Of a DNA stretch of 64,000 nucleotides, positions 8,064-46,548 are shown piece by piece. Position 1 is the stretch's first letter. Each line of letters begins with the position of its first letter. Both the position numbers and the translations under genes were made by a program. Origin of the DNA: Candidatus Woesearchaeota archaeon (GTDB lineage: Archaea > Nanobdellota > Nanobdellia > Woesearchaeales > WJIZ01); the NCBI GenBank assembly GCA_014729995.1, contig WJIZ01000044.1:14330-78329 (forward strand), read 5' to 3'. The notes under the pieces are model-generated. The model was given only the letters and a program-made list of their open reading frames with translations, searched no databases and had not been told where the DNA came from.

Positions 8064-8064
8064 G

Positions 8065-8496: not shown

Positions 8497-8497
8497 A

Positions 8498-9922: not shown

Positions 9923-9923
9923 G

Positions 9924-10679: not shown

Positions 10680-10714
10680 TAACTTTTATAAATTAAATAA
10701 CAATTCCGGATAAA

Positions 10715-10987: not shown

Positions 10988-11025
10988 GCGGCAACGAACT
11001 CGCTAAAAGGGATTGGGGGAATAAA

Positions 11026-11454
11026 ATGTATGACATAGGAAGAATTTGTATAAAGGTTGCTGGCAGGGATGCTGGCAATGAAGCTGTTATTATTGATGTT
11101 CTTGACGATAAGTTCGTAATGGTAGATGGCAATGTAAGAAGAAGGAAATGCAATATAATGCATTTAGAGCCTTCTGAAAGGAAGATAGATATCAAGAAAG
11201 GCACTTCCCACGAAGCAATAAAAAAGGAGTTTGTCAGGATAGGGTTTCCGGTCTGGGAAACAAAGCCGAGAAAAACAGCTCAAAGGCCTAAGAAAACAAG
11301 AAAAAAGAAAAAAAAGCATTCAACAGACAAAAAGGCAGTAAAAAAAGAAAAAGATTCTAAAAGCGGGAAAAATACAGAAAAAGATTCTAAAAAAGAAAAT
11401 AAAAAAGAAAAAGGGCAGGCAGGAAATAAAGCAACACCTGAAAAAGCAGCTTAA
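11026..11454 (+). CDS. rpl14e: 50S ribosomal protein eL14 with Lys-rich C-terminal extension
   Basis: KOW-like GRICIKVAGRDAGNEAVIIDVLDDKFVMVDG. About 60 aa of K-rich tail with an internal EKDSK repeat. Confidence 0.85.
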   Translation: MYDIGRICIKVAGRDAGNEAVIIDVLDDKFVMVDGNVRRRKCNIMHLEPSERKIDIKKGTSHEAIKKEFVRIGFPVWETKPRKTAQRPKKTRKKKKKHSTDKKAVKKEKDSKSGKNTEKDSKKENKKEKGQAGNKATPEKAA

Positions 11455-14684: not shown

Positions 14685-15289
14685 TAATATCCTAGCTCCT
14701 CATTAACTATTATGACATGTATTCTATCAGGTATATTTTGGAACTGAACAACAGACAGGATATTGCATATCCTGTCGGGGCTGCGGCAGTCAACGCATTC
14801 TCCTTTCTCTGCACAGGGCGTGCCTTTGCCAAGCCTCTTGGTGTTCTTGGGAGAGGCAACTCTGGCTATTCTTTGCACCGCAGCATCTAAATCCTTAACA
14901 ATCTTATTCCTTCCAGCAACTATTATAACTTTCTCCGGACCGTAATTTATTCCATTTACTCTGTTGCCCCAGCCATCCATATTTACTATCTTCCCGTCTT
15001 CTGTAAGCGCATTGCTTCCCGAGAGAAATATCCCCTTATTGGCATAATTCTTCATGACCCAATGCTTCATATAAAGGTTGGGCTTTGCTAAGTCTCTGTC
15101 TATCAGTTTATATCCCCCCTTTCTCAATTCATCTAGAAGCCCTGTTTCCCTCAGAGTAACAGAGCCGGCAAAACTTATCTGCATGTCTTTATCTATCAAG
15201 CTAAGCGCTTTCTCTCTGGCTTCCTCCCTGTCCTTAACAAAATAGCCATTCATGTTTCTTGATTTTAGTGCAGCTATCACTTTATCCAT
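14684..15289 (-). CDS. LUD-domain (DUF162, LutC/YkgG-like) protein with a C-terminal Cys cluster
   Basis: LSGSNALTEDGKIVNMDGWGNRVNGINYGPEKVIIVAGRNKIV...TPCAEKGECVDCRSPDRIC. Its stop overlaps the pheT start (TAATG), and its start is 1 nt after the pheS stop. Confidence 0.8.
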   Translation of the reverse strand: MDKVIAALKSRNMNGYFVKDREEAREKALSLIDKDMQISFAGSVTLRETGLLDELRKGGYKLIDRDLAKPNLYMKHWVMKNYANKGIFLSGSNALTEDGKIVNMDGWGNRVNGINYGPEKVIIVAGRNKIVKDLDAAVQRIARVASPKNTKRLGKGTPCAEKGECVDCRSPDRICNILSVVQFQNIPDRIHVIIVNEELGY

Positions 15290-26830: not shown

Positions 26831-27643
26831 TTATTTCTTTGCACTTACAGCCTTCATCTCTTTCCATGCCAAATCAAACAATGTTTCCATGGCAGCTGCA
26901 AAGAATGGCGTATTCACCCAGATTCCAACGTCATATGTAGGGTGTACATCCTCATCATGCATAACCATAAAGATTATTTCCTTCCCGTCTACAAGGATAA
27001 ATCTCGCATTCACCGGAGTATTTCTTATTTCAGCCACTCCCTGCAGGTCTTTTACCGCATCCTTATTATCCTTGGTAAGTGGAGCAGCTATCCTTATCTT
27101 AACTCCTCTTTTCTTTAGCTTCTCCAGAGTCGGCTTAAGCCCCTCTACCTTCCTTACCAGCCCCTGTCCTGTTGTCATTATGACTATACTTTCTTCTGCA
27201 TCCCTTATAGTCAGCTCCATGTGGTTATACAGGTTATGCCTGCCTCTGATGCTGCCTGAAAGGTCGCTTGGCTCAACAAGTTCAACACCCTGTTTATGTA
27301 GGGAATTCAGCTCTTGGATAACATCAGTGCCCTTTAATTCTTCCAGCCGCTTTATTTGATCCTTAGCATCATTCTGGACATTTTTCTTTACTCTCTCAAG
27401 AACCTCACTGGGCTCTACTGCAATATATTTTATGGGCTTGCCTAATTTCATCACTACAAAGCCCTTTTTTTCTAAGCTCTCCAGGACATCATAACTTCTC
27501 GACCGTGGAACATTAGCTATATCACTAAGCTCCCCTGCTGTTGAAACCCCCCTGGAAAGCAAAGCGCTCCAGATTTTTACTTCATATAGATTCAGCCCGA
27601 AATATCTGCGAAGCTTGCTTAAAAATTCATCTTTTACAATCAT
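26831..27643 (-). CDS. trmB: TrmB-family transcriptional regulator (paralog 1)
   Basis: LYEVKIWSALLSRGVSTAGELSDIANVPRSRSYDVLESLEKKGFV is the TrmB wHTH, followed by a C-terminal TrmB-type domain. ATG at 27643 is preceded by GGGGGGTGA. Confidence 0.85.
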   Translation of the reverse strand: MIVKDEFLSKLRRYFGLNLYEVKIWSALLSRGVSTAGELSDIANVPRSRSYDVLESLEKKGFVVMKLGKPIKYIAVEPSEVLERVKKNVQNDAKDQIKRLEELKGTDVIQELNSLHKQGVELVEPSDLSGSIRGRHNLYNHMELTIRDAEESIVIMTTGQGLVRKVEGLKPTLEKLKKRGVKIRIAAPLTKDNKDAVKDLQGVAEIRNTPVNARFILVDGKEIIFMVMHDEDVHPTYDVGIWVNTPFFAAAMETLFDLAWKEMKAVSAKK

Positions 27644-27999
27644 TTTTCTATTCACCCCCCTTTTTAACAAGAAAAATTCCTTGTTATAAAAGGGTAAATT
27701 CTAACTACTACTATTAATATGTTACTATTTTTTACCTCGTAACAGTACAGTAACTTCCAATAAGATACATATATTTTTTACTTTTAAGTTAATACAATTA
27801 AACATAACTTATATTTAAATATTTAGATAACAAATACCATATATCTTATCAAACATAAAGGCAGAAAATAGTAATGATATAAGAATAATCATTAGCCCAA
27901 TAACAGCAATGCACCATTTGAACTATTTTGTCATTTCAAAAAATTTATAAAACTTATGCTGATTATTTTTATAAAAAATTTTAAGGGGGAGGGTTTATA

Positions 28000-29244
28000 A
28001 TGGTAAAAATAAAGAACAGGTGGTTTGTGGTTATCGGTGCGGTGCTCATACAGCTTGCATTAGGAGCTATATATGCGTGGTCTGTTTTCACTAAAGCACT
28101 CCAGGAAGCCCCGTATAATTTCTCCACACCGCAAACCCAGGCTATTTTCTCTGCTGGCTTATTTACGTTTGCTCTGGTCATGATTTTCGCAGGAATTAAG
28201 ATGAAAAAAACAGGACCCAGGCCCATGGCTGTTGCCAGCGCCATTGTGTTAGGCCTTGGCTATGTATTAGCTGGATTATTTGGAACTAAGTTCATCACGC
28301 AATTGATCTTTATAGGTATTATTGGTGGAGCAGGTATTGGTCTTGGTTATGTAGTTCCCATAGCAGTAAGCATGAAATGGTTTCCTGATAAAAAAGGACT
28401 TATCTCTGGATTAGCAGTTGCTGGATTCGGATTCGGAGCTACGATATGGGTCAAAGTAGCTGGATCATGGTTCGGCCTTATAACAAAATATGGCATACAA
28501 TCAGTCTTTCTGTGGTATGGGATAGCCTTCGCAGCACTCGTGCTTATAGGTTCTATCTGGATGGTAAACCCTCCTAATAACTATAAACCAAAAGGCTATA
28601 AAGAGCTGGACAAGCAGAAGAAGAAGATTGAAAAGCCTGTTGCAGATTTAGAATGGAAACAGCTGCTTTCCAAATACGGATTTTGGGCTATATGGTTTAT
28701 TTTTATCGTAAGCGGAGGCGCTGGTTTGATGGTAATCGGCACAATCAAGTTGTTTGGCATTGACGCCCTCACAGGAAAGATAGGCGCATTAGCAGCTGGT
28801 GGTGCTGCAGGCACAGCCATGGCATGGTATGCTATCTTCAACGGTCTCGGAAGGATTGTCTGGGGAAAAATCTCAGATAACATAGGCCCAAAATGGGCGA
28901 TCTTTCTTATGACTCTGATACAGGGAATATTGATGTTGACTTTCTTTAAGGTAGGTACAACAGCAGTCACGCTTGCTGTGTATGCCAGTGCAATTGGGTT
29001 TAATTTTGGTGGAAATTTTGCCCTATTCCCTGTAGCTACAGCAAAACTCTTCGGTACAAAGAACGTAGGCAGTAATTATCCGTTTGTCTTTACTGCATAT
29101 GGCATAGCAGGAATAGCAGGACCCTTACTTGGTGGATTTGTCAGGGAATCAACAGGCTCTTTCCTTATGGCCTTTATTCCGGCAGGAATAGCATGCATAG
29201 TTGGAGCACTGGTTGCTCTCACGATTAAAACCCAGAAAAATTAA
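28000..29244 (+). CDS. MFS transporter, oxalate/formate antiporter (OFA)-like
   Basis: 12 predicted TM segments. N-terminal RWFVVIGAVLIQLALGAIYAWSVF is typical of the OFA family. GGGGGAGGG SD upstream. Confidence 0.8.
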   Translation: MVKIKNRWFVVIGAVLIQLALGAIYAWSVFTKALQEAPYNFSTPQTQAIFSAGLFTFALVMIFAGIKMKKTGPRPMAVASAIVLGLGYVLAGLFGTKFITQLIFIGIIGGAGIGLGYVVPIAVSMKWFPDKKGLISGLAVAGFGFGATIWVKVAGSWFGLITKYGIQSVFLWYGIAFAALVLIGSIWMVNPPNNYKPKGYKELDKQKKKIEKPVADLEWKQLLSKYGFWAIWFIFIVSGGAGLMVIGTIKLFGIDALTGKIGALAAGGAAGTAMAWYAIFNGLGRIVWGKISDNIGPKWAIFLMTLIQGILMLTFFKVGTTAVTLAVYASAIGFNFGGNFALFPVATAKLFGTKNVGSNYPFVFTAYGIAGIAGPLLGGFVRESTGSFLMAFIPAGIACIVGALVALTIKTQKN

Positions 29245-29264: not shown

Positions 29265-31952
29265 CTACTTTTTCTCTAAATCATAGACAACATTATATAT
29301 ATTCTCATCCTTGTCAAAAGTCAGATTACACCCTTTCTTCTTGAAAAGATTTATCATCTTAGTGTTACCTGCTAATGCAGCAGCAATCATCCTCTTCCAC
29401 CCTTTATCGCGTGCAATGTCCATTATATGGTCAAATAGAATTTCTCCCAGTCCTTTGCTCTGCCATTCATCCCTAAGCACTATAGCAAATTCAGCTGTCT
29501 CATGATTTGCGTCTCCTGTCATCCTCACAACTCCAAGTATCTTTTTCTTTCCTTCTTCCCCTATGACAGGAACAATAGCTATCTCCCTGCTATAATCATT
29601 GAAAGTATATCTCACCCTCTTATTATGGGGCATATCTTTTATTATATGAAAAAAACGATATCTCATCGTCTCTTCAGAAAATGAATTGAACATATCGATC
29701 CACATCGGCTCATCCTCAGGCTTTATAGGCCTTAAGACCATCTTTCTGCCTTCAAACTCGATCTTCTTAACATATTGTTTCGGATAAGGGCTTATAACTA
29801 GATGATCATGTGGGTGTACATCCTTATTTTTGAAATAACCCTCATCCAGTACCATCCTAGCATCTAGAGCAACGCAATGTTCATCGCATATTTTTAGAGG
29901 ATTTAGGTCTATCTCTTTTATCTCAGGAAGCTCAACAAGAAGCTTAGAGAATTTTACAAGTACTTCTTCGAGCAATCCAAGATTCGCAGGGTGGATATTC
30001 CTATATCCTTTTTTTAGAAAATCATATATTTTAGTGCCCTCCATCAGCCTCCTTGCCAAGGTCTGGTTGAGAGGAGGCAATCCAATGGTCTTATCTTTCA
30101 AAGCCTCGACAGCCACGCCCCCCATTCCAAATAGCACAACAGTTCCAAATAAGGAGTCTTTCTTGCTGCCAACGATGATCTCATAGCATTTCTTCGCAGC
30201 CATTCTTTGCACAGTGATACCATCTATCCTGGCATCTGTTTTGAATTTCTTAGCATTATCTATTATCTCATCAAATTTATTCTTTGCATCCTGTTCGCCT
30301 TTTATATCAAGAACAACACAGTTAGCGTCGGACTTATGTGTTATGTCCTCGCTTTGTATCTTCATGACAACAGGAAAACCTATTTCCTTAGAAAGAGCAG
30401 CAGCTTCATCCCTATTCTTTGCTAACTTAGGTAAAGTTGTCTTGATACCATAATTTTCAAGAATTTCCTTAGATTCTAGTTCTGATAATGTTGTTCTGTT
30501 AGAATCAAAGATATTTCTAAGTTTCGACTTGATTTCTTCATTAGATATCTCTGCTTCTGATATTTCACTTGGAGTTTCATACAATAATTCAATATTTCTT
30601 GTATATTGATACATATTAAGAAATGTCTTGACAGCTTGCTCTGGAGTATCATATTCTGGGATATTACCCTCCCTTAACGCCTGTCTACCTTCAGTGACTA
30701 AAGAAGCGCCCATCCACGAAGCCAATATTGGCTTCTTATGCCCTTTTGCTTTTTCAACCAATAATTTAGCTGTCTCTGTTGATTCAGTCATAGCCTGAGG
30801 TGTCAAGATAACTAAAGCCCCATCGATATCTTTATCTTGTAAGCAGATATCAAGAGCATCTGCGTACCTTTTTGCACTCGCATCTCCTAGTATATCTACA
30901 GGATTTGACCTAGACCAAAATTCAGGTAATGCATCATTTAACCTATTGATTGTACATTCAGAGAGTTCTGCTAGTTTTCCACCATGTTTGATTAAAGAAT
31001 CAACAGCCATCACCCCCGGACCGCCTGCATTTGTTATTATTGCCAGCCTATTTCCATAGGGTCTTGGCTGTTTTGCTAAAGTCTCTGCACAGTTGAACAA
31101 ATCATCTACCTCATCTACTCGTACAATGCCTGCTCTTTTGAAAACTGCATCATATATATCATCTTCTCCGGCTAGTGCTCCTGTATGGGATGCCACAGCT
31201 TTAGCTCCTTCTGCTACTCTTCCTGATTTGATTACGATGATTGGCTTGTTCATAGCAAAACCACGGGCTGCGCTCATGAATCTTCTTGCTTCTGTTATAG
31301 ACTCAATATAAAGTATGATGCTATCAGTGCTATTATCAGCTCCGAAATAATCTATCATATCCCCAAAATTCACGTCCAGCATACTTCCTAACGATATAAA
31401 ATTGCTGAAGCCTATATTATTAGATAAAGCCCAATCCAGGATTGCTGTTCCTAATGCTCCGCTTTGGGATATAAAAGCGATCTTTCCCGGAGCAACAGTA
31501 TTCTTAGCAAAACTAGCATTCAATTTTATCTTCGGCCTGATAACACCGAGACAGTTTGGGCCGATTACCCTTAGATCATATTTTTTTCTTATCTCCTCAA
31601 TCTCTCCCATGGCTCTCCTGCCTTCTTCCCCCATCTCAGCAAATCCTGCAGAAATTATGACTATGCCTTTGATACCATTATCCCCGCATTCCTCGACCAG
31701 CCCAGCCACAGTAGGGGCAGGTGTGCAGATAACTGCCATATCGACCTTTTCAGGCAATTCGGAAGCAGATTTAAAAGCCTTAACTCCCTGCACACTATTG
31801 CGCTTTGGATTTATAGGAAAGACAACTCCATCATATCCCGAGCCTATCAGGTTATTGAAGATTATATAGCCCACGCTTCCCTGCCTATCAGAAGCCCCTA
31901 TAACAGCTATACTCTTAGGATCGAATATTTTTTCAAGATTTCTTGTTGACAT
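29265..31952 (-). CDS. ADP-forming acyl-CoA synthetase-like (CoA-binding / CoA-ligase / ATP-grasp) protein fused to a C-terminal GNAT acetyltransferase (Pat-like)
   Basis: N-terminal KSIAVIGASDRQGSVGY CoA-binding motif and SHTGALAG phosphohistidine-loop motif (His codon at 31185-31187). ATP-grasp in the middle. C-terminal GNAT (AIVLRDEWQSKGLGEILFDHIMDIARDKGWKRM). Confidence 0.85.
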   Translation of the reverse strand: MSTRNLEKIFDPKSIAVIGASDRQGSVGYIIFNNLIGSGYDGVVFPINPKRNSVQGVKAFKSASELPEKVDMAVICTPAPTVAGLVEECGDNGIKGIVIISAGFAEMGEEGRRAMGEIEEIRKKYDLRVIGPNCLGVIRPKIKLNASFAKNTVAPGKIAFISQSGALGTAILDWALSNNIGFSNFISLGSMLDVNFGDMIDYFGADNSTDSIILYIESITEARRFMSAARGFAMNKPIIVIKSGRVAEGAKAVASHTGALAGEDDIYDAVFKRAGIVRVDEVDDLFNCAETLAKQPRPYGNRLAIITNAGGPGVMAVDSLIKHGGKLAELSECTINRLNDALPEFWSRSNPVDILGDASAKRYADALDICLQDKDIDGALVILTPQAMTESTETAKLLVEKAKGHKKPILASWMGASLVTEGRQALREGNIPEYDTPEQAVKTFLNMYQYTRNIELLYETPSEISEAEISNEEIKSKLRNIFDSNRTTLSELESKEILENYGIKTTLPKLAKNRDEAAALSKEIGFPVVMKIQSEDITHKSDANCVVLDIKGEQDAKNKFDEIIDNAKKFKTDARIDGITVQRMAAKKCYEIIVGSKKDSLFGTVVLFGMGGVAVEALKDKTIGLPPLNQTLARRLMEGTKIYDFLKKGYRNIHPANLGLLEEVLVKFSKLLVELPEIKEIDLNPLKICDEHCVALDARMVLDEGYFKNKDVHPHDHLVISPYPKQYVKKIEFEGRKMVLRPIKPEDEPMWIDMFNSFSEETMRYRFFHIIKDMPHNKRVRYTFNDYSREIAIVPVIGEEGKKKILGVVRMTGDANHETAEFAIVLRDEWQSKGLGEILFDHIMDIARDKGWKRMIAAALAGNTKMINLFKKKGCNLTFDKDENIYNVVYDLEKK

Positions 31953-32002
31953 TTTATCAAAAGGGAGATAAGAACTTAGCTTAAAGCTTTCGGTTTTGGG
32001 TA

Positions 32003-32968
32003 CTAATTAAGATTCCAGTAAGGCTTAAGATTCTCCTTCAGCTGTGCAAAATTATCCTCGAATTTCTTCCTGTTGTATGCGATTGTAGTTGTTTTTGGAT
32101 CATCATTAAATTTCGGCTCTGCGCCATTTACTCCGTCCTTGAAGCTCATGGCACATTTAGCAAGCCACACCGGGTCATATCCTCCTTCTAAAGTCGCAAA
32201 AGATTTCTTAAAATTTTCTCTTAACAGTCTGCCTGTTTCATAATATGCATGCAGGCTATAGCCCAGATCACATATAGGATCAGAATGATGGCCGTCAAAT
32301 CCTGCTCCGCAGCATACGATATCAGGCTTGAATTGGTCCCTGATCATAGGGATGAAAAAATTCAGAGTCTCAAAATATATATCATCTCCTGTCTTCGACA
32401 CTATAGGGATATTGATAGTGTGCCCCTTGGCATCTCCTGCTCCTATCTCATTTACAAAGCCATTTCCTGGATAATAAGGATACTGATGCAGTGACATATA
32501 TACGACACTGGGATTTCTATAAAAGATCTCAGCAGTGCCATTGCCATAATGGCAGTCAAAGTCAAGGATGAAAACCTTTTTTCCTTCATTCACTAATTTC
32601 TGTACTGCTATAGCAGTACTATTGAAAACACAGAAGCCCATTGCCCTATCAGCAGTTGCATGATGCCCGGGAGGCCTCACTAAAGCAAAATCTCCTTTAT
32701 CAGCAGCCTGGATAGTTGCTCCCACAGCATAACACGCTGCTTGATATGTTTTTGGGCATGTTTTGGTATCAGAGTCCAGATCCCTTGATTCAGAGCATGC
32801 TTTTTTGACAAAATCAATATATGTTTTAGGATGAATAAGAAAAAGATATTTCTCACCATTGGTTATCTTACTTTCTTTCACGTTCTTCAGATAATCGAAC
32901 CTTCTTATGCTCTCCGGATGAATCCCTGTATCATGCTCAAGAAATATTCTATTGTAGACAAATTCCAT
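32003..32968 (-). CDS. Zn-dependent histone-deacetylase-family (AcuC/HDAC-like) deacetylase
   Basis: RPPGHHA, DFDCHYGNGT, GAGFDGHHSDP and LEGGY motifs. The Zn ligands and catalytic Tyr are present. Confidence 0.85.
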   Translation of the reverse strand: MEFVYNRIFLEHDTGIHPESIRRFDYLKNVKESKITNGEKYLFLIHPKTYIDFVKKACSESRDLDSDTKTCPKTYQAACYAVGATIQAADKGDFALVRPPGHHATADRAMGFCVFNSTAIAVQKLVNEGKKVFILDFDCHYGNGTAEIFYRNPSVVYMSLHQYPYYPGNGFVNEIGAGDAKGHTINIPIVSKTGDDIYFETLNFFIPMIRDQFKPDIVCCGAGFDGHHSDPICDLGYSLHAYYETGRLLRENFKKSFATLEGGYDPVWLAKCAMSFKDGVNGAEPKFNDDPKTTTIAYNRKKFEDNFAQLKENLKPYWNLN

Positions 32969-33007
32969 AAATTTGTGTAATTTTCAGAAATTTAAATACT
33001 TTTTCTA

Positions 33008-33556
33008 TTATTTAACTATCTTAGAAATTTCCTTAAAATGCTCATCCTTGCTGTCCTCAATCATCTGGAAAATAATCATCTCGGCAGTCACTAATTTCAC
33101 TCCTTCTCTCTCCAGCCTTCGCAATACAATATCATAATCGCTTTTCTTTCTTGAAGAAACTGCATCAGAAGCTAGATAAACAAAATATCCATCTTCCAAT
33201 GCACTCAACGCTGTCTGAAAAACACAGACATGAGACTCTATCCCGCATATTATTAGATTCTTTTTCCCTTTTTTTCCAATTAATTCTAAAAATCCATTAT
33301 CATTAAAACAATTAAAACTTACTTTCTCAATCTTTTCGCTGTTTTTTAGCTCTTCCCTTAATTCCTTTACTGTTTCCCCCAATCCTTTTGGATATTGCTC
33401 TGTAACTATAATTGGAATTCCCAAGAGATTAACAGTCTTGATAAGCTTCCTGGAGTTATCAACCAGCTCGCCAAACTCATAAATAACAGGCCTGAATTTT
33501 TCCTGTATATCAATAACTAGCAGCAAAGAATTGTCTGCGCTTATATTATCCTCCAT
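33008..33556 (-). CDS. Isochorismatase-family (cysteine) hydrolase
   Basis: LLLVIDIQEKF (Asp), ...K..., LIICGIESHVCVFQTA (Cys) gives the family's catalytic-triad pattern. Confidence 0.85.
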   Translation of the reverse strand: MEDNISADNSLLLVIDIQEKFRPVIYEFGELVDNSRKLIKTVNLLGIPIIVTEQYPKGLGETVKELREELKNSEKIEKVSFNCFNDNGFLELIGKKGKKNLIICGIESHVCVFQTALSALEDGYFVYLASDAVSSRKKSDYDIVLRRLEREGVKLVTAEMIIFQMIEDSKDEHFKEISKIVK

Positions 33557-33589
33557 AAGAAATAGAAATAAAAAGATAAATAAAAAACT

Positions 33590-35554
33590 TTACTTTCTGT
33601 CCTTAATCAAGACATCAACAACAGATGGGTCAGCTAAAGTTGTCGTGTTGCCTACATCATCCTTGCCTTCTGCAAGAGCCTTAAGAATTCTTCTCATGAT
33701 CTTCCCGCTTCTTGTTTTCGGCAAAGCATCTGCAAACTGTACCTTATCAGGCTTGGCTATCGGTCCTATTTCCTTTCCGACATGATTCCTCAGTTCAGTC
33801 ATCAGCTCTTCAGACTTTTCCACTCCTTTGTTCAATGTTACGAAACAATAAAGTGCCTGTCCTTTTACATCGTGCGGAAAAGGAACAACAGCTGCCTCAG
33901 CTACAGCATCATGGCTTACCAAGGCGCTCTCCACTTCAGCAGTCCCTATCCTGTGCCCGCTTACATTAATAACATCATCGATTCTTCCCATCAGCCATAT
34001 ATCGCCGTCCTCATCAATTCTCGCGCCGTCTCCTGCTGCGTAATATCCCTTGAATCTGCTCCAGTATGTGTCGATAAATCTCTGGTGATCCCCATAGACT
34101 GTCCTCATCAGGCCCGGCCAAGGCTTTTTCATCACCAGATAGCCGCCCTCGTTAACATCTGCTTTTGAACCATCCTCACGCAATACGCCGGGCTCGATTC
34201 CGAATAATGGCCTTCCTGCACAGCTCGGCTTCATTGTTATCGCTCCTGGTAAGGTTGTAATTAAGATTCCTCCTGTTTCTGTCTGCCACCATGTATCAAC
34301 TATAGGGCAGTTCTCTTTTCCTATATTTTTATAATACCACATCCATGCTTCCGGATTAATCGGCTCTCCCACTGTTCCCAGGAGCTTTAAGCTCGACAAA
34401 TCATGCTTATCTATAGGCTCAGTTCCAAATCTTGCAATAGCTCTTATTGCTGTTGGCGCTGTATAGAATATATTTACCTTGAATTTCTCGACAATCTGCC
34501 AAAACCTGTCATTATCCGGATAAGTAGGCACTCCCTCAAACATCATTGAAGTCGCTCCATTGGACAATGGCCCGTACACGATATAGCTGTGCCCTGTTAT
34601 CCAGCCCACATCAGCTGTGCACCAATAAATGTCTCCGTCATGATAGTCAAACACATACTTGAATGTCTGTGTAACATATGTTAGATATCCTCCTGTGGTA
34701 TGTAAGACGCCTTTGGGCTTGCCTGTTGTTCCTGACGTATACAATATAAACAACGGGTCTTCAGCATCCATATGCTCTGCCTCGCACTCATCTGAAATAT
34801 CACCTGAATTTAGCTCATCTTCCCAGTAATAGTCTCTTCCTTCCTTCATATTATGCTCCGCTTCCGCTCTCTTTGCAACTATCACAGATTCGATGCAGTC
34901 GACTCCCTGCAACGCTTCATCTGCGATCTTTTTCAGGGGAATCTTTTTCCCGGCGCGAAGGCCTCCGTCAGCAGTGAGCAAAATTTTACAGGTCGAGTCA
35001 AGAATCCTGTCCTTCAGGGATTCAGCGCTGAAGCCTGCAAACACGACAGAGTGCATTGCTCCAATTCTTGCACAGGCAAGCATCGCGACTGCTGCTTCCG
35101 GAATCATGGGCATGTATAAGCATACCCTATCACCTTTTTTTACCCCTTTCTTCTTGAGGACATTGGCAAATCTGCAAACTCGTTTGTGCAGCTCCTTGTA
35201 AGTTATCTTCTGCATATCATCTTCCGGCTCGCCCTGCCATATTATAGCTGTTTGGTCTCCTCTTTCATCAAGGTGCCTGTCCAGGCAGTTGTAGCAGACA
35301 TTTGTCTTACCTCCCTTAAACCATGTAAACTTGACATTTTCCTTGTCCCATGTAAAAACATCATCCCATTCCTTGAACCAATGCAGCTCCTTGGCCTTCT
35401 CGCTCCAGAATTTCCCAGGCTCCTTGATTGACTCTTCATAAAGCTTCTTATATTCCTCTTCAGATTTAATATAAGCTTTATTCCTGAAACTCTCTGGTGG
35501 CTCTATTCTTCTCTTCTCCTGGCTCATAGATTTTATAGTATTTTCTTCTGGCAT
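33590..35554 (-). CDS. acs: Acetyl-CoA synthetase (AMP-forming)
   Basis: [12 protein letters not shown], and C-terminal [14 protein letters not shown] containing the conserved regulatory Lys (codon 33701-33703). GAGGAGGGG SD upstream. Confidence 0.95.
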
Positions 35555-35663
35555 AAAATCCCCTCCTCAAATTAATATCAAAACGTATCTGGAAATTGTT
35601 TATAAGGTTTTTGGAAAATTTAATATATACAATAAATTGGTATTCTAAAAAATTTTTATATTA

Positions 35664-39752: not shown

Positions 39753-39838
39753 GCCAGGCACCGACAGATTTATATATAAAGATATTCATTTTTTAACTAT
39801 TCAATAGATAAAACTCTATAATCCAAAAGGTGAAAATA

Positions 39839-41041
39839 ATGAAATCGCAAATATTCGAAAGCCGTAAGAAATCCCAGTCTGGAATGAATGCTGCTGTGCT
39901 TGTAGCGATACTCGCTGCCTTAATTATCATTTACATAATATTTCTGCCATCCAATGAAAGGCTCGAGCTGGTTGACAATGAATCAGATTTCGGGGGTTCA
40001 GGGGAAGATGAAGACGATATCCTGCTTGAGGACAAAGAAATCATTATGCAGGTAATCGGCCAGGATGAGATAGAGCATGATTTCCCCTCTGTCAATCTCT
40101 ACACAAGCACAGAAGCAGAAAAATTAAGGGAAGAAAATTCAGTATATGTAAAAAACGGTTTGTTTGATGAGCAAAGCAAGCAGATAGATTTCAAGGTTAA
40201 AGACCCAGACAACACTAAAAACATACTGCTTAGCTTCGAAGCTAAAAAAAGGAAAGGTAGGCTAATAATTGTCCTGAACGACTATGAGATATATAACAAT
40301 AAAGTTGAAAAAGTTAATGTAGACCCCATAAAAATATCCAATGATTACATTGGAGAAGACAATCAACTCAGCTTGAGCGTTTCCGGAGTGGGGGCAGCGT
40401 TCTGGTCAACTAATGAGTATCTTCTCGAGAATTTTAAGATAACAGCAGATATTACAGACACCTCAACAAGAGAAGCAGAAATAAAGTTTGTGCTTTCGGA
40501 AGGGGAGGCAGGGAATATAGAAAAGTCAGAGCTAAGGTTCGTTCCTGACTGCCAGCCCGCTAACGTCGGCTTGCTGACCATACTCATAAACAGAAATGAG
40601 ATTTATTCTTCTGTGCCTGACTGCGGCATAGCCCGGCCTCTTGAATTTGCCCCCATGTATTTGTTAAGGGGGGAAAATAAGCTTACTTTCAGCACAGAAA
40701 GGGGCAGATATCTTATAGACCAGATAAAAATCACCAATGACTTGGAAGAGCAGCCTTCCTATACATATTTTTTCGAGCTAGAAAATGATGAGCTTGAGGA
40801 TATCGAAGATGAGCAAAAGAAAGTTAATCTCACATTCTACTTTGTGGATGATAAGGAAGACAAGGAAGCTGAAATCGTGATAAACGGCATGCGCAGCCTC
40901 TCCATGAGATTTCATGATGCTGCTGTCTGGAGCAGGATAATTCCCGCTGACTTCCTGGAAGCCGGCTCAAACTCGCTGAAGATAATACCCGAGGAAAGGA
41001 TGGAAGTAAGGAAGCTGCAGCTAACCCTGGAAGATGATTGA
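39839..41041 (+). CDS. Uncharacterised envelope protein P1 (N-terminal signal-anchor TM, acidic linker, beta-rich ectodomain with paired Cys)
   Basis: AGGTGA SD 4 nt before the ATG at 39839. One TM (NAAVLVAILAALIIIYIIFL). PDCQP...PDCG cysteine pair. No recognisable family motif. Confidence 0.6.
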   Translation: MKSQIFESRKKSQSGMNAAVLVAILAALIIIYIIFLPSNERLELVDNESDFGGSGEDEDDILLEDKEIIMQVIGQDEIEHDFPSVNLYTSTEAEKLREENSVYVKNGLFDEQSKQIDFKVKDPDNTKNILLSFEAKKRKGRLIIVLNDYEIYNNKVEKVNVDPIKISNDYIGEDNQLSLSVSGVGAAFWSTNEYLLENFKITADITDTSTREAEIKFVLSEGEAGNIEKSELRFVPDCQPANVGLLTILINRNEIYSSVPDCGIARPLEFAPMYLLRGENKLTFSTERGRYLIDQIKITNDLEEQPSYTYFFELENDELEDIEDEQKKVNLTFYFVDDKEDKEAEIVINGMRSLSMRFHDAAVWSRIIPADFLEAGSNSLKIIPEERMEVRKLQLTLEDD

Positions 41042-41076
41042 TTTTTAAGATGAAAAAAGAGGTCAAAGTTTAGAAG

Positions 41077-43590
41077 ATGTCATTATCATCCAGAGTCAGG
41101 GACGGCTACCGCACTAACAGGGACGCTGGCAGAAACAGGGCTGTTTCTTTTGTAAGGGCACCATTTACAGGTGCATGGCAAAGTGCCCGTGAAAGATGGA
41201 TAATCCTTATTTTTATTTTAGCAGCAGGCATAATCAACCTCTTTCTGGAAGTGTTTTGGCCGCAGACTCTGGGGTTCTACGGCATAAGCCTAAGCTACTT
41301 CACAAATACTATCCTTTCCACTGACTGGATAGGGCTGTACAATATTTTTCATTTTAACATTTTTTTCCTGTTGTTAATATTCATAATTATTAACATGAGA
41401 AACAATCGCCCCCACACATTAAGAATCTGGCTTACCTTCATCCTGATTATCTATCTGTTAAGCGCCATTCCCATCTTAAACACCTACATGGGAATAAGAA
41501 ATTTCTTTGAGCTGTTCTTATTGCTTGGAACAGCCATATACATGATGCGTCAAGATTTAGATGGCGAGGACTTGGTAGCCACTGTAACGTTGCTCTGGGT
41601 TTTCTATAATCTGTATATGTTCGGCATCCCTCTTAATATGGGAGGTCTAATCCATTTCTCGTTCTTTGTAGTCTTCTTTCTGACTTTCGGGATAAGCAGG
41701 TTGTTTGAACAGGACAGGACTCAGGTTAAATGGTGGCTCTTGTTTATAATTATTTTCGATGTCTTTATGCCTGCTTTTTTCGCAGATATCTATCCAAACC
41801 TGCCTATATCAACTTTACCGTTTCTGTTATTTGGTACATTAATCTTTGCACAGGCCTTTGCGCCATCCGGATGGAGCACTGCAGGCATCATTGTTGTAGT
41901 AGCTTTCTATTTTCTCCAGTTTGCCGCTGCCTCAGAAGCATTTCAGGATATGATTCCACAAAGGCAGGCAGGTGATTCTGAGATGGAACACAGAAAAATC
42001 TGGCATCTGGGCTACTGGTCATCAAAAATAGCAGGCATGATGAACCGCTCTGTTTACCATGCCTCAGGCCAGGACTACTATGCAAGCCAGGTTGACAGGA
42101 ACTCAAAGAAAAGGCTTGGCGTATATTTAGATGACATAAGCAGCAATTCCAAATACTATTATGATAACGAACGTATAATCATTGACGCCACTCTTACCGC
42201 AGAAAATTTTGTAACAGACGAGAAAGACCCTGTCTTCGAGGAAATAGGGATTTTATTGGGATGCGAAGCATGTAATAGGGATAAATGCATCAAAGGGGAA
42301 ATCTATCCAAGGTCAGAATACCAGATAGAAAGCTATGAAGTAGAAAACATACAGTGCATATTCCAGCCCTGGCAGATGAAAAAAGGCAGCTATGACATAA
42401 AATTCATGGCAGAATTTAATTTCCGCACAGAAGCATACCTCAAGCGCTACTTTGTTTCAAAGGAAAGGATAGAGTCATTGAGAAGAAAGCAGCTCATCAA
42501 AAAAGATGAAGACATCTTAAAGATAAATGATATTTCTGACAGGAATCCAGTTGCCAAAAACAGCGTGGGACCGGTACAGATAGGGGTTTCAGACAGAATT
42601 CCTGTAGTTATAAAATTAGACAGCCAGAGCACCAATGAGCATCTCTTCGGGATACAACTGGTAAATGAATGGAATGGAGAGATAGGCAAGATAACAAACA
42701 TGGAGTTTTACCTGCCCGAAGGCATAGAACTGGTTGGGGGCAAGTGTGATTTCCACATGGAAAATGCCCCTATAGCAGAAGAAAGGTTCGAAGGCTATGA
42801 AAGGTACCAGCTAACTGACAGATATAACCCCAAATTATATAATAAAATACAAGACAGGACTGAACAGGACTGCTGGATAAAGATAGACCGTGAAGATATC
42901 GGGAATGTTTTGCAGCCAGGAGACATAACAACAAGGTACTTTCGCATGCTCACAGAATATGAATACATCCTGGAAGAGTCTCTTCCAATAACAATAAGAG
43001 AGCCCGAAGGCTTCAGTGTAAAAATAACAGCGGCCGTAAATGAGATTCTTGACTCAACCTCAAAAATAAAATGCACAGCAAAAAATGACAAAGAATTCCC
43101 TAGTGACGTAACTTTCACATTATACAAAAATGGAAGTAAAGAATCATCAAAAAGCAAACAATGCCTTGACAATAAATGCGAAGATATCTTTAAATATAGC
43201 TTTAAAGCAGGAACAAACCTGAAATGCGAAGCAGGCTACACAGAAGATGATGAACAAAGGCTGGTAGCAGCATACACAACAGTAGAGAACTCACCAGCAA
43301 AAATAAAAAATATTGAATTCGAGAAGGAGAAAGTAAATAAGGGAGAAAACCTGGTCTGCAGTGTCGAAACAGCAGACAAGGACAATGATCATGTAACGGT
43401 CAGGTTTGAATTTGAAGGCCTCTACATAGCCTCCTCGCAAAAAGCATGTAACAACAAATGTAAAGTCGAAATCCCGACTGGCAGCGCTGAAAAAGAAACA
43501 GTAGTAACATGCATAGCAACAGCTTATGACACCCAAAAAGGAGAACAGGGCTCAGCAAAAGCAAAAATAATAGTGCAAAATGATCAATAA
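41077..43590 (+). CDS. Uncharacterised polytopic membrane protein P2 (~10 TM) with a ~530-aa Cys-rich extracytoplasmic C-terminal region
   Basis: Hydrophobic segments between about aa 40 and 295, then a soluble region ending in two tandem ~90-aa four-Cys modules. Its stop overlaps the start of P3. Confidence 0.6.
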   Translation: MSLSSRVRDGYRTNRDAGRNRAVSFVRAPFTGAWQSARERWIILIFILAAGIINLFLEVFWPQTLGFYGISLSYFTNTILSTDWIGLYNIFHFNIFFLLLIFIIINMRNNRPHTLRIWLTFILIIYLLSAIPILNTYMGIRNFFELFLLLGTAIYMMRQDLDGEDLVATVTLLWVFYNLYMFGIPLNMGGLIHFSFFVVFFLTFGISRLFEQDRTQVKWWLLFIIIFDVFMPAFFADIYPNLPISTLPFLLFGTLIFAQAFAPSGWSTAGIIVVVAFYFLQFAAASEAFQDMIPQRQAGDSEMEHRKIWHLGYWSSKIAGMMNRSVYHASGQDYYASQVDRNSKKRLGVYLDDISSNSKYYYDNERIIIDATLTAENFVTDEKDPVFEEIGILLGCEACNRDKCIKGEIYPRSEYQIESYEVENIQCIFQPWQMKKGSYDIKFMAEFNFRTEAYLKRYFVSKERIESLRRKQLIKKDEDILKINDISDRNPVAKNSVGPVQIGVSDRIPVVIKLDSQSTNEHLFGIQLVNEWNGEIGKITNMEFYLPEGIELVGGKCDFHMENAPIAEERFEGYERYQLTDRYNPKLYNKIQDRTEQDCWIKIDREDIGNVLQPGDITTRYFRMLTEYEYILEESLPITIREPEGFSVKITAAVNEILDSTSKIKCTAKNDKEFPSDVTFTLYKNGSKESSKSKQCLDNKCEDIFKYSFKAGTNLKCEAGYTEDDEQRLVAAYTTVENSPAKIKNIEFEKEKVNKGENLVCSVETADKDNDHVTVRFEFEGLYIASSQKACNNKCKVEIPTGSAEKETVVTCIATAYDTQKGEQGSAKAKIIVQNDQ

Positions 43591-44566
43591 AACAATTGCA
43601 GCATTAATCCCTTTTTTGCTAATCATAGCTTCATGCTCTCCTCGTGCAGATAATACGGAAGAAAAGCTGCAGGCAGGCACAGCAGGTCTGGAATTGGAAT
43701 TTATAAAGCAGGGAATTCCAAAACAAATAACAGAACAAAACCAGCTCTACGGCATGATCGAATTAAGAAACAAGGGCTACTATGATATAAATGATGCGCT
43801 GCTGGTTCTTTCACTGGAAAAGGATTTATTGGAAATCGATTCATGGGACATGCCTGAAACTTTCAGGAAAAATTCTGACAACACAGTATCTTTCAGCCTT
43901 AAGGGCAAGTCACTTTCCAACAGCAACGGGGAAAAGCAGGTAGTAACCGCAGTAATAAATTCAAGAGAAATAGATGAGACAAGGAACAAGATAGAGTCAA
44001 TAATATCTGCAGCAGCATGCTACCCTTATTCTACTGTCTTCTCAGGCACTATATGCATAGATACAGACCCCAATAATTTGCGCATAGCTGAAAAAACATG
44101 TGAAACCAGGGATATATTAGCCTCAAGCCAGGGCGCGCCCGTAGCAATAACCAGGATTGAACAGAAAGTATTACCAGGAAGTTCAAGCAGTAATATAAGG
44201 CTTCAGTTTACTGTTTATGCAGAAAATAAAGGCAGGGGCATAATCATAGATCCTTATAGGTATAAAGAAATTTGTTTAGGAAAAAATATCAGAAAGCAGG
44301 ATTATAATTCACTTATTATGGAATCCTTCGAATTTTCCGGCTATATGTACGAATATGGTGAGGATTACGAGATAGACTGCATCCCAAATCCAATGAAAGA
44401 GACAAAAGATAGCTATTATACAAAATGTACCTTAAAAGAAATCTCTTCTATTCCGAAAAGCAGGCTTACTTTCGAAACACCTTTAGTCATACAGCTTTCC
44501 TATGGGTACAGCACAACAGAAACCCACGAGATATCCATACTTAATAATGAACAGGAAATTATTTAG
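43580..44566 (+). CDS. Uncharacterised lipobox lipoprotein P3 (paralog family with P4 and P5)
   Basis: Signal peptide ending LLIIASC (lipobox). Shares motifs with P4/P5 (AAACYPY..ICID, SQGAPVAITRI, FTVYAENKGRG). Confidence 0.65.
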   Translation: MINKTIAALIPFLLIIASCSPRADNTEEKLQAGTAGLELEFIKQGIPKQITEQNQLYGMIELRNKGYYDINDALLVLSLEKDLLEIDSWDMPETFRKNSDNTVSFSLKGKSLSNSNGEKQVVTAVINSREIDETRNKIESIISAAACYPYSTVFSGTICIDTDPNNLRIAEKTCETRDILASSQGAPVAITRIEQKVLPGSSSSNIRLQFTVYAENKGRGIIIDPYRYKEICLGKNIRKQDYNSLIMESFEFSGYMYEYGEDYEIDCIPNPMKETKDSYYTKCTLKEISSIPKSRLTFETPLVIQLSYGYSTTETHEISILNNEQEII

Positions 44567-44612
44567 TTCAGCGAAACTTTTATATACAAATTTATTAGGT
44601 AATAGTAAAAAA

Positions 44613-45563
44613 ATGAAAAAGGTCATATTTTGCTTGTTTTTGGTTTCATTACTCATATTTGCTTCCTGCAATAGGAGCAGAAACAGGGAGGGAGAAGACC
44701 TGAATGATGAAGAATATAGAAGAGGGGACAAAGGATTAAGGCTCGAATTCGTAGAGGGTGCTCCTCCTGACAGGATATATACCGGTAATGAGATGGATAT
44801 CATTGTGGAAGTCAGGAATATGGGTGCATATCCAAAGACAGATTCCTTTGACGGCAGGCTTGAAATATATGGTTTTGATGAGAAAGCTTTCTCGGGAGAA
44901 AGGTGGGACGGCTCTCCTTTCCTGAGCCCCGAATTGCAGGGCAGGAGCCCCCGCTCCCCCAGGGGCGGCAGGGATGTCAAAAGGTACCAGATCGATAGGG
45001 TGGATACTTTGTTCGATTCAGAATTCTATGAGCCTACAGTCATAGCAGCAGCCTGCTATAAATATAGGACAATAGCAGACGCTTCTATATGCGTAGACCC
45101 TGAACCGTATTCTATTTTCGATGAAGACAAAGTATGCAATCTGAGGGAGGGCGGGGAAAGCTACTCATTGGGAACGCAAGGCGCTCCTGTTGCAGTTACC
45201 CGAATAAAAGAAGAAATCGCCAGCCAGGGTATACATTTCAGCATTTATATAGAAAATGTAGGAAAAGGAAAAGTAATTGATGAAAGGGCAATAAACGAAT
45301 GTCCTCTTGAACTGGATTATAATGATGTAGACAAAATTTTGGTCAGGGTCAGCCTGCCCTGGGATTCTGCCCCAGACTGCCAGCCAAAGGGCGATTACCG
45401 CGATCCTGTGAGGCTGGATGAGAGCGGAACCGGCTTCATCTTTTGCACATTCAGAAAACCGGATTCAAAGTCTGCTATCGAAACAAACTTGCATATAGAG
45501 CTTGATTACCGCTATCTGGACTGGGAAGAAAAAAAGATAAGAATAATCAATCTGGATAGGTAA
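44613..45563 (+). CDS. Uncharacterised lipobox lipoprotein P4
   Basis: MKKVIFCLFLVSLLIFASC lipobox. Motifs AAACYKY..ICVD, TQGAPVAVTRI and FSIYIENVGKG. The ATG at 44613 is chosen over the track start at 44502, which would overlap P3. Confidence 0.65.
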   Translation: MKKVIFCLFLVSLLIFASCNRSRNREGEDLNDEEYRRGDKGLRLEFVEGAPPDRIYTGNEMDIIVEVRNMGAYPKTDSFDGRLEIYGFDEKAFSGERWDGSPFLSPELQGRSPRSPRGGRDVKRYQIDRVDTLFDSEFYEPTVIAAACYKYRTIADASICVDPEPYSIFDEDKVCNLREGGESYSLGTQGAPVAVTRIKEEIASQGIHFSIYIENVGKGKVIDERAINECPLELDYNDVDKILVRVSLPWDSAPDCQPKGDYRDPVRLDESGTGFIFCTFRKPDSKSAIETNLHIELDYRYLDWEEKKIRIINLDR

Positions 45564-45609
45564 GCTTTATATAGTTAAAAATTTCATTTTTAAAATGGAG
45601 GCTGTTACG

Positions 45610-46548
45610 ATGAAATTAAAAACTCTGTCAATAATGTTCATTATCGCAATATTTATACTCTCGGGCTGCACGCAGGAGGATGATTCCGGCATCAAAACAA
45701 AGGATCCCTTCATAGGCGGAACAGAAGCTGTGCTTATAAGTTTCCTGGAAGATGCCCCCCTTCCTGAAGTCAGGGCTGGCGGAGATTTCCCGTTTGATGT
45801 TGTAGTCAGGCTCAAGAACGAGGGCGAACACGCCATACCAAAAGATGAGCTTACTGTCACAATCTCAGGAATAAATGCGCAGGAATTTAATAAAGAAGAA
45901 TCTGAATTGGTAAAAAGTCCCGAAGAAGACTTAGATGCAAGAAGAAAGGAGAACAGCGATATAATAGATTCTAATCCTGTCTTTGTAGAATATCAGGATT
46001 TCAACAGGGCAGAAGATTTCTCAGGCAATACCTACACTATCAGGGCAGATGTGTGCTATGGATATGCAACAGAAGCAGTATCTACTATATGCATAAAATC
46101 AAACAATCTCGATGATAAGGAAGGGGTATGCACAGTTAACGAAGACAAACAAGTTCACAGCTCCGGGGCGCCTGTTAAAATGGAAAACATGAAAGAGACA
46201 GCTACAGCCAAAAACAAGGTAAGGTTCAGTTTCGATATTGTGCACAAAGGCAACGGCAGGATTTATAAAAAGGATTCAGACTGTGGAAAAGAGGACAGAA
46301 GGGCAAATGAAGACAAGGTTTGGGTAGAGGTAAGCACCGGTCTGGAAGGGCTGGAATGTACAGGCCTTAGCGGCGGAACAGGAAATTCCGGGTTCGCTAC
46401 GCTGTACAGCGGAGATAAGAGGATAACCTGCACCCAGACCGTGGACACAACCTCAGACTATGAAAAGACCGTGGAAATAACAGTGGAATATGAATATGAG
46501 GATAACGCAGAAACATCTGTTACAGTATTAAGTGCAGCAGGGAATTAA
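45610..46548 (+). CDS. Uncharacterised lipobox lipoprotein P5
   Basis: MKLKTLSIMFIIAIFILSGC lipobox. GGAGG lies 8 nt upstream of the ATG at 45610 (an ATG at 45595 is also possible). Motifs ADVCYGY..ICIK, SSGAPVKMENM and FSFDIVHKGNG. Confidence 0.65.
   Translation: MKLKTLSIMFIIAIFILSGCTQEDDSGIKTKDPFIGGTEAVLISFLEDAPLPEVRAGGDFPFDVVVRLKNEGEHAIPKDELTVTISGINAQEFNKEESELVKSPEEDLDARRKENSDIIDSNPVFVEYQDFNRAEDFSGNTYTIRADVCYGYATEAVSTICIKSNNLDDKEGVCTVNEDKQVHSSGAPVKMENMKETATAKNKVRFSFDIVHKGNGRIYKKDSDCGKEDRRANEDKVWVEVSTGLEGLECTGLSGGTGNSGFATLYSGDKRITCTQTVDTTSDYEKTVEITVEYEYEDNAETSVTVLSAAGN

Follow-up and report, generated by a model that had tools for sequence, protein, structure and literature searches.

We analysed a stretch of 64,000 nucleotides (nt) from the Candidatus Woesearchaeota contig WJIZ01000044.1 (positions 14,330–78,329 of the forward strand; hereafter the window), in which four adjacent genes encode an acetyl-CoA synthetase of the AMP-forming type (Acs), an isochorismatase-fold hydrolase, a Zn-dependent HDAC-family deacetylase and a Pat-type lysine acetyltransferase of 895 amino acids (aa). 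Judged by homology and gene linkage, this locus is probably a reversible-lysine-acetylation module for acetate activation, with the acetyltransferase as writer, the deacetylase as eraser and Acs as target. Bacteria and eukaryotes are well known to control Acs through reversible acetylation of lysine. In the module proposed here, plentiful acetyl-CoA would allow the GNAT domain of the writer to move an acetyl group from acetyl-CoA onto K618 of Acs, and the acetylated enzyme would be off because the lysine of the A10 motif is needed for the adenylation half-reaction; the class II-like HDAC-family enzyme would hydrolyse the acetyl-lysine, freeing acetate and turning Acs on again. An MCT-like transporter encoded alongside would carry a monocarboxylate (acetate or lactate), and a TrmB-family regulator may control transcription. 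We infer the acetylation of Acs by the writer, the removal of the mark by the HDAC and the physiological signal; further targets of the writer-eraser pair are probable, possibly including the writer itself.

The four open reading frames (ORFs) are intact and co-directional on the minus strand (Table 1), with intergenic gaps of 33, 39 and 50 nt, and the stop codons of the writer gene and of a convergent major facilitator superfamily (MFS) transporter gene lie 20 nt apart. ORFs on the opposite strand inside the cluster genes are antisense shadows. An initial annotation of this DNA had proposed the same four minus-strand genes and the convergent MFS gene, and its coordinates agree exactly with the ORF list; the close spacing that it described also stands, although its figures of 34–51 nt for the gaps do not. 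The domains that it had predicted for Acs, the hydrolase, the deacetylase and the Pat-like protein were all recovered with Pfam.

The putative target and writer

Acs passed the NCBIfam equivalog model TIGR02188 with 1022.6 bits (cutoff 725), scored 1061.7 bits with NF001208 and contains the Pfam domains ACAS_N, AMP-binding and AMP-binding_C; its catalytic residues are complete. Its A10 motif of 11 residues starts at residue 612 and includes K618, encoded by AAG exactly where the initial annotation had located a conserved target lysine. The homologous lysine is a regulated acetylation site in bacterial Acs, as described in PMC11255334 and PMC6640162. The latter, together with PMC12184503, further documents the acetylation of Acs by Pat homologues in E. 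coli, Salmonella and Rhodopseudomonas palustris, and its reactivation by the Zn-dependent LdaA in R. palustris.

The Pfam domains of the writer follow one another in the order CoA_binding(_2), Succ_CoA_lig, Ligase_CoA_2, ATP-grasp_5 and Acetyltransf_1/3, which bears out the Pat/YfiQ order first proposed for this protein and is the order by which a class I-alpha (type I) lysine acetyltransferase is defined (PMC6456759). The writer aligned end to end with E. coli PatZ (PDB 9it0; residues 1–892 on 1–880, E = 1.4e-175). Its ACD (NDP-forming acyl-CoA synthetase) region is 38% identical and falls inside the clade of ACD-GNAT fusions. In a rough neighbour-joining tree these fusions formed one clade, separate from ACD-only proteins, and both the writer and PatZ lay within it; PatZ clustered with alphaproteobacterial fusions, and the archaeal fusions (DPANN, Bathyarchaeia, Nitrososphaerales and Methanoperedens) came together. 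The GNAT domain keeps both its acetyl-CoA-binding and its catalytic residues: E821 (codon 29490–29492) aligns with the catalytic E809 of PatZ, the acetyl-CoA P-loop Q831-x-x-G834-x-G836 with G822–G824, and K872 with K860, the roles of these PatZ residues being given in PMC12184503. A GNAT domain devoid of acetyl-CoA-binding residues, which the initial annotation had named as a refutation of its reading, is thus not what the alignment shows.

The N-terminal part had been annotated as 'ACD-like'. The ACD architecture was confirmed, but the label understated it, as the catalytic residues of a genuine ADP-forming acetyl-CoA synthetase are all intact: E217, H256 (codon 31185–31187), H539 (codon 30336–30338) and D682. 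The equivalents of E217 and D682 are catalytic residues known from the Pyrococcus ACD. The sequence ASHTGALAG of the writer aligns with the His254-alpha loop of ckcACD1 and matches the ASHTGSxAG motif of true ACDs, and the beta-subunit His is present in an HKSD motif; the role of His254-alpha in ACD is described in PMC12184503. At the alpha-His loop, PatZ has a deletion and no His in the alignment with the writer. PatZ and SePat both lack this ACD catalytic His (H254 of ckcACD1 corresponds to L245 of PatZ), a loss stated to abolish ACD activity (PMC12184503, PMC3195501).

We sampled 151 ACD-GNAT fusions, archaeal and bacterial, down to ~31% identity; the pattern was noted for the window and for loci L001–L032, L087–L090, L094 and L107–L109. 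The alpha-His and the Glu were present in all 151, the beta-His in 148 and the Asp in 146, and the ACD residues were conserved as strictly as the GNAT residues. Loss of the alpha-His is thus a trait of the enterobacterial Pat members and not of the class. The writer passed the ACD alpha model TIGR02717 (577.7 bits, cutoff 567.15) and scored below the full-length ACD equivalogs NF045494 (515.8 versus 1200 bits) and NF045493 (621.3 versus 1300 bits). Because no catalytic residue of a functional ADP-forming acetyl-CoA synthetase is missing, the writer may be bifunctional, acting as ACD and as acetyltransferase; a literature search for ACD activity assayed in ACD-GNAT fusions found none. Several Bathyarchaeia fusions carry the source name 'acetate--CoA ligase alpha subunit', so that ACD-GNAT fusions may be counted as plain ACDs.

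The putative eraser and the hydrolase

PF00850 (Hist_deacetyl) matched the deacetylase with 234.9 bits. Its tandem His residues H102-H103, zinc ligands D138, H140 and D225 and catalytic Y264 were invariant in 65 relatives, as were the motifs 98-RPPGHH-103 and 261-EGGY-264. RPPxHH together with xGGY is the hallmark of acetyl-specific deacetylases acting on protein lysine or on polyamines (Graf et al., PMC11532494); the motifs are therefore no proof of a protein substrate, since polyamine deacetylases share them. The initial annotation had called the protein HDAC/AcuC-like, of which the Zn-dependent HDAC family held and the AcuC type did not. The top 50 Foldseek matches of an AlphaFold 2 model (pLDDT 95.9) were all class II enzymes or HDAH (HDA15, HDAC6 CD1 and CD2, HDAC7 and Pseudomonas HDAH; TM-scores 0.84–0.89). 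By sequence, class II enzymes scored 120–131 bits versus 102 bits for Aquifex HDLP, and no class I HDAC was found among the top 60 matches. Membership of the AcuC subfamily (class I-like, cluster 2c) was rejected with class II and HDAH enzymes being closest, an indirect argument because no AcuC structure exists. By these comparisons the deacetylase is class II-like, and 'AcuC-like' applies to it no more than loosely, in the COG sense. Among short-form structures, the nearest by sequence is PDB 5ZMP, a 307-aa 'lysine deacylase'; a literature search for a paper on 5ZMP found none.

The hydrolase matched PF00857 with 122 bits and has a probable catalytic triad of D16, K78 and C111. On sequence comparison it is closest to eukaryotic MAR1/ISOC-like proteins, the best solved relative being the C. 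elegans MAR1/ISOC-like protein 2b34 (120 bits). Identity as a nicotinamidase (PncA), which would link the hydrolase to sirtuins, was rejected at 19.1 bits against an NCBIfam cutoff of 174, and a literature search turned up no known activity for isochorismatase-fold proteins of the ISOC/MAR1-like type.

Gene order in relatives

The window proteins were mapped onto 109 fetched loci, and gene tables were read for eleven relatives; a metagenome scan with the HDAC as query gave 12 loci, four of them informative. The cluster arrangement recurs in relatives that have diverged to 57–86% protein identity (Table 2), and chance clustering is ruled out by this conservation. HDAC and Pat genes are adjacent in eight distinct archaeal lineages, with nothing, a DUF134 gene or a 155-aa ORF between them, and the best Pat match among the scanned species representatives was 72% identical. 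In L008 the deacetylase upstream of Pat is only 30% identical to the HDAC of the window, a non-orthologous replacement. The varying intervening genes and this replacement argue for selection acting on the linkage of writer and eraser. A hidden partner shared beside the HDAC gene was not seen in L001 and L094, whose unannotated flanking proteins (483 and 469 aa, respectively) are unrelated to each other.

Acs is linked to the HDAC-Pat pair in four lineages (the window, L005/L006, L004 and L109), and the hydrolase gene follows Acs in L005/L006 (65% identity) and in L109 (57%). Conservation in relatives, on which the initial annotation had made its reading depend, was thus found, although confined to one DPANN clade.

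Table 1. Features of the Acs cluster and its surroundings in the window.
Feature	Position	Strand	Basis
AMP-forming Acs, 654 aa	33590–35554	minus	ORF list, Pfam, NCBIfam
Acs K618 codon AAG, A10-motif lysine, presumed acetylation site	33701–33703	minus	codon check
Isochorismatase-fold cysteine hydrolase, 182 aa, ISOC/MAR1-like	33008–33556	minus	PF00857
Zn-dependent HDAC-family lysine deacetylase, 321 aa, class II-like short form, presumed eraser	32003–32968	minus	PF00850
Pat/PatZ-type class I-alpha (type I) lysine acetyltransferase, 895 aa, presumed writer	29265–31952	minus	PatZ homology
ACD (NDP-forming acyl-CoA synthetase) module of the writer, residues 1–705	29838–31952	minus	TIGR02717
GNAT domain of the writer, residues 735–880	29313–29750	minus	Acetyltransf_1, Acetyltransf_3
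MFS monocarboxylate (L-lactate/SfMCT-type) transporter	28000–29244	plus	NF049980; convergent with the writer gene
TrmB-family transcription regulator, candidate cluster regulator	26831–27670	minus	Pfam TrmB, Regulator_TrmB
AT-rich region upstream of Acs, common to a divergent GT2 gene; presumed promoter region	35555–35663	minus	sequence read

Table 2. Gene order around the HDAC-Pat pair (Iso, isochorismatase-fold hydrolase; PPase, H+-pyrophosphatase; <, orientation as for the convergent MFS gene).
Locus	Pat identity	Gene order
Window		Acs-Iso-HDAC-Pat-<MFS
L005/L006	76%	Pelota-Acs-Iso-HDAC-Pat-<MFS-PPase-TrmB
L109	69%	Acs-Iso-<IspH-HDAC-Pat-<MFS
L004/L016	69%	Acs-HDAC-DUF134-Pat-TrmB
L007	72%	MFS-HDAC-Pat
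L001–L003/L096	62%	HDAC-155 aa-Pat
L094 (Nanoarchaeota metagenome-assembled genome)	52%	HDAC-Pat, 15-nt gap
L008	60%	394-aa PF00850 protein (8505–9689, plus) at the same position upstream of Pat

Several loci were informative in other respects. L091/L092 and L001/L002 share a neighbourhood of Fic, aminotransferase, HDAC, glutamate dehydrogenase, helix-turn-helix regulator, ornithine decarboxylase and tautomerase genes and differ by the presence of the 155-aa ORF and the Pat gene; as the neighbourhoods are otherwise the same, the writer has been gained or lost as a unit beside a resident HDAC. L107 encodes a Pat homologue of 1016 aa (8001–11051, plus; 62% identical) with a C-terminal extension of ~120 aa and no HDAC nearby. 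Beside it lies a divergent nicotinamidase/pyrazinamidase gene (6965–7630, minus; NF008623, 180.1 bits, cutoff 174), whose product is an isochorismatase-fold protein unrelated to the hydrolase of the window. Nicotinamidase removes nicotinamide, the product of sirtuins, and its position next to the Pat homologue hints that this lineage uses a sirtuin-based eraser. Two loci bear bacterial labels: L007 (Puniceicoccaceae bacterium) has Pat and HDAC proteins 72% and 73% identical to those of the window and an MFS protein of DPANN type, and L009 (Chitinivibrionales bacterium) a Pat 59% identical. The binning of these contigs as bacteria points to mis-binning or lateral transfer.

Counter-evidence and rival explanations

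A number of findings weigh against an acetylation switch for Acs at this locus. Of the eight lineages with an HDAC-Pat pair, only four have Acs next to it, and among close relatives the HDAC gene occurs alone in L091/L092/L097, L093 and L098 and the Pat gene alone in L107 and L108. Outside the clade, 20-odd ACD-GNAT loci have neither HDAC nor Acs within 8–10 kb; this holds beyond ~60% Pat identity for Chitinivibrionales, Iainarchaeum, Methanoperedens, Ignavibacteria, Desulfobacterales, Alphaproteobacteria, Bathyarchaeia and Nitrososphaerales, and the absence of HDAC near distant ACD-GNAT genes was confirmed with a second HDAC query. A conserved lysine motif is no guarantee of acetylation, Acs of Streptomyces lividans being resistant to Pat in vitro (PMC4053389). 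As to the enzymes themselves, the HDAC family also includes acetylpolyamine and other small-molecule amidohydrolases with the RPP motif, two of the three allosteric acetyl-CoA residues of PatZ (R26 and R81) are S26 and T81 in the writer, and the intact ACD catalytic set suggests that the writer has an additional job. Nor is a single operon established: the three internal gaps (31953–32002, 32969–33007 and 33557–33589) lack a Shine-Dalgarno motif, two of them have a TATA-like TTTAAA or TTTAAG ~27 nt before the ATG, and a T-tract follows the Acs stop codon. The cluster genes may instead have leaderless transcripts of their own.

Intact ACD residues raise the alternative that the 895-aa protein is mainly an ADP-forming acetyl-CoA synthetase, yielding acetate and ATP from acetyl-CoA in a fermenter with the GNAT domain as an accessory; the cluster would then be an acetate-metabolism island covering both directions plus a transporter, and acetylation of Acs would not be the reason for the linkage. 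We consider this unlikely. It is favoured by the pass of TIGR02717, by the match of H256, E217, H539 and D682 to ckcACD1 and other true ACDs where PatZ and SePat are without the alpha-His (PMC12184503, PMC3195501), and by the MCT/lactate-type transporter as a conserved neighbour; Woesearchaeota are also described as fermenters producing acetate and lactate (PMC11606122), which fits both an ACD role and an MCT-like transporter. However, the catalytic residues of the GNAT domain are conserved as strictly as those of the ACD module, which places this domain under selection, the full-length ACD equivalog models are missed widely, and the most constant neighbour of the writer gene is a deacetylase, not an acetate enzyme, for which an ACD role offers no explanation. 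Nor do we find it probable that HDAC and Pat form a general protein acetylation system with its main targets elsewhere, the position of Acs having no regulatory meaning. Half of the HDAC-Pat lineages have no Acs beside the pair, E. coli PatZ modifies diverse substrates (PMC12184503), and DPANN genomes are small with a compact gene order, all as such a system would have it; yet the order Acs-(Iso)-HDAC-Pat-MFS is kept in four lineages at 69–76% Pat identity despite the IspH insertion in L109, and in the bacteria reviewed in PMC12184503 and PMC6640162 Acs is the Pat substrate with the firmest support.

It is quite improbable, finally, that the HDAC and the hydrolase serve as amidohydrolases of small molecules such as acetylpolyamines or other N-acetyl compounds, with Acs salvaging the freed acetate in a catabolic cluster. 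PF00850 does take in acetylpolyamine amidohydrolases and xenobiotic amidases with the RPP motif (PMC11532494), isochorismatase-fold enzymes are typically small-molecule amidases, the adjacency of Acs and hydrolase is kept in three lineages, and in L001, L091 and L092 genes for ornithine/arginine decarboxylase and glutamate dehydrogenase are found a few kb away from the HDAC gene. But those decarboxylase genes are more than 5 kb off with opposite-strand genes between, four HDAC-Pat lineages have no isochorismatase-fold gene, and protein lysine deacetylases are closest to the eraser in sequence and structure, acetylpolyamine amidohydrolases scoring lower; the HDAC is, moreover, steadily partnered with a protein acetyltransferase in eight lineages, one non-orthologous replacement included. 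A further proposal, possible though doubtful, combines acetylation of Acs with ACD catalysis: the writer would be a working ADP-forming acetyl-CoA synthetase that silences the opposing AMP-forming Acs through its fused GNAT domain, the deacetylase resetting the system. If so, Acs and ACD running together would form a futile cycle that costs, on balance, one phosphoanhydride bond in each turn and that the switch would avoid; the His-less Pat of E. coli and Salmonella would be a degenerate derivative of an ancestrally bifunctional enzyme; and many archaeal 'acetate-CoA ligase' calls in metabolic reconstructions would be writer-enzyme fusions.

Transporter, regulator and transcription

The MFS protein passed the SfMCT L-lactate/monocarboxylate model NF049980 with 351.5 bits (cutoff 320). 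The oxalate/formate antiporter (OFA) family to which the initial annotation had assigned it was rejected, TIGR00890 giving 190 bits against a cutoff of 374.85. The MFS gene is convergent after Pat in L005/L006 (53% identity) and in L109 (75%) and lies upstream of HDAC in L007 (52%). In the closest relative, L005/L006, a membrane H+-pyrophosphatase gene stands beside the cluster (L005, 12538–14490; L006, 6239–8191), between MFS and TrmB; the window, unlike these two loci, has no such gene there. The Acs reaction releases pyrophosphate.

The cluster-side TrmB protein is 90% identical in L005/L006 and 77% identical in L004, where its gene directly follows Pat, and might conceivably regulate the cluster. 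Its conservation exceeds that of the writer (76% and 69%, respectively) and, in L005/L006, that of Acs (86%) too. A TrmB gene also adjoins the Pat homologue of a Nitrososphaerales metagenome-assembled genome (L088), and the window has a second TrmB-family regulator gene at 62625–63440 (minus).

Acs and MFS genes have a GGAGG Shine-Dalgarno-like motif 8 nt before the ATG, for Acs in the stretch 35555–35570. Its distribution, in Acs and MFS only, is the opposite of the usual archaeal operon pattern. The AT-rich region upstream of Acs is a putative promoter region. A scan of the window for sigma-70 promoters and intrinsic terminators gave counts equal to those in shuffled sequence, with bacterial-type models unsuited to archaea.

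Host and remainder of the window

The window is ordinary archaeal chromosome, with an S3/S4e/S5-SecY ribosomal block, both PheRS subunits (alpha and beta), shikimate and Phe/Tyr biosynthesis genes, a split transketolase, Pelota, the RFC small subunit, a Tyr/Trp-type tRNA synthetase and FEN-1. The archaeal host named by the initial annotation is supported by the archaeal RFC small subunit, Pelota, TrmB, S4e and PheRS. Since all named relatives of the window PheRS alpha (58–66% identity) belong to Woesearchaeota, Nanoarchaeota or Nanobdellota, the host is by sequence affinity a Woesearchaeota-like DPANN archaeon. Rfam and tRNA scans of the window gave no matches. A LUD-domain (LutC-like lactate-utilisation) gene lies at 14684–15289 (minus) between the PheRS beta and alpha genes, and five successive co-directional ORFs (403, 837, 328, 353 and 317 aa) without a Pfam match occupy 39830–46548 (plus).

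Discussion

The locus and its relatives provide a concrete archaeal candidate for an Acs acetylation switch. No archaeal Acs writer or eraser is described in the literature searched; those acetyltransferases of archaea that have been studied to date are small GNATs of a single domain, and the ACD-fused architecture has been treated as bacterial (2025 paper, PMC12607858). That a lineage with small genomes keeps a regulator of 895 aa implies that it is of real value. Fusions of ACD and GNAT occur commonly in metagenome-assembled genomes of archaea (DPANN, Bathyarchaeia, Nitrososphaerales and Methanoperedens), and nearly all retain the ACD catalytic residues. Among the fusions compared, the His-less Pat of E. 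coli and Salmonella looks like an exception, which raises the questions of whether the textbook 'inactive regulatory domain' of Pat is the exception rather than the rule, and of whether ACD-GNAT genes are miscounted as plain acetate-forming ACDs in metabolic reconstructions.

Among characterised writers, Pat of Salmonella enterica and E. coli (YfiQ, PatZ) belongs to the same family as the writer described here, with the same domain order and GNAT catalytic residues and with Acs as its canonical substrate. The eraser there, CobB, is an NAD+-dependent sirtuin, and the genes are unlinked. Those Pat proteins are also without the ACD catalytic His (H254 replaced by L245, or deleted), whereas the window writer keeps it, and the allosteric acetyl-CoA residues R26 and R81 of PatZ are not conserved in the window writer. 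With ckcACD1, the Pyrococcus ACD and the Nitrosopumilus ADP-forming 4-hydroxybutyrate-CoA ligase, the writer shares the five ACD subdomains, the ASHTGxxAG and HKSD motifs, and the Glu and Asp. Unlike these ACDs, it is a single chain with a C-terminal GNAT domain, scores below the full-length ACD equivalog cutoffs and groups with the Pat fusions.

In its layout the cluster resembles acsA-acuABC of Bacillus subtilis, in which target, writer and Zn-dependent eraser likewise share one locus; there, AcsA loses its activity when its A10 lysine is acetylated in an acetyl-CoA-dependent reaction, and regains it through the deacetylase (PMC11255334). The B. subtilis writer AcuA, however, is a small single-domain (type IV) GNAT rather than an 895-aa Pat-type fusion, and its eraser AcuC is class I-like (cluster 2c), whereas the window deacetylase is, on the comparisons above, class II-like. 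B. subtilis also has the CBS/ACT sensor AcuB, and neither a CBS nor an ACT gene occurs within the window cluster or next to it. The acsA gene is divergently transcribed, whereas the genes here are co-directional and are joined by an isochorismatase-fold gene and a gene for an MCT-like transporter.

The nearest parallel in components is R. palustris, in which RpPat places on K606 of Acs an acetyl group that LdaA, a Zn-dependent enzyme, and the sirtuin SrtN remove (PMC6640162). The initial annotation had taken the combination of Pat-type writer and HDAC-type eraser as undescribed for either of its model systems; with RpPat/LdaA on record, the combination is not new. The shared features are a multidomain Pat-type GNAT writer, a Zn-dependent HDAC-family eraser and a conserved C-terminal lysine of Acs, K606 there and K618 here (PMC6640162, PMC6456759). 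The system of R. palustris has been demonstrated by experiment, in a bacterium; it further involves SrtN and KatA, a second writer, and covers other AMP-forming acyl-CoA synthetases as well. The genes here are, by contrast, contiguous, the host is a DPANN archaeon, and the system is a predicted one. The R. palustris genes are not known to be clustered. The principle is thus already known from bacteria, the pairing from R. palustris and the clustering from Bacillus, and the novelty claimed in the initial annotation was overstated. What is new is the domain of life and lineage, the clustering of a predicted Pat-type writer and class II-like eraser with an ISOC-like hydrolase and an MCT-like transporter, and the intact ACD residues of the writer.

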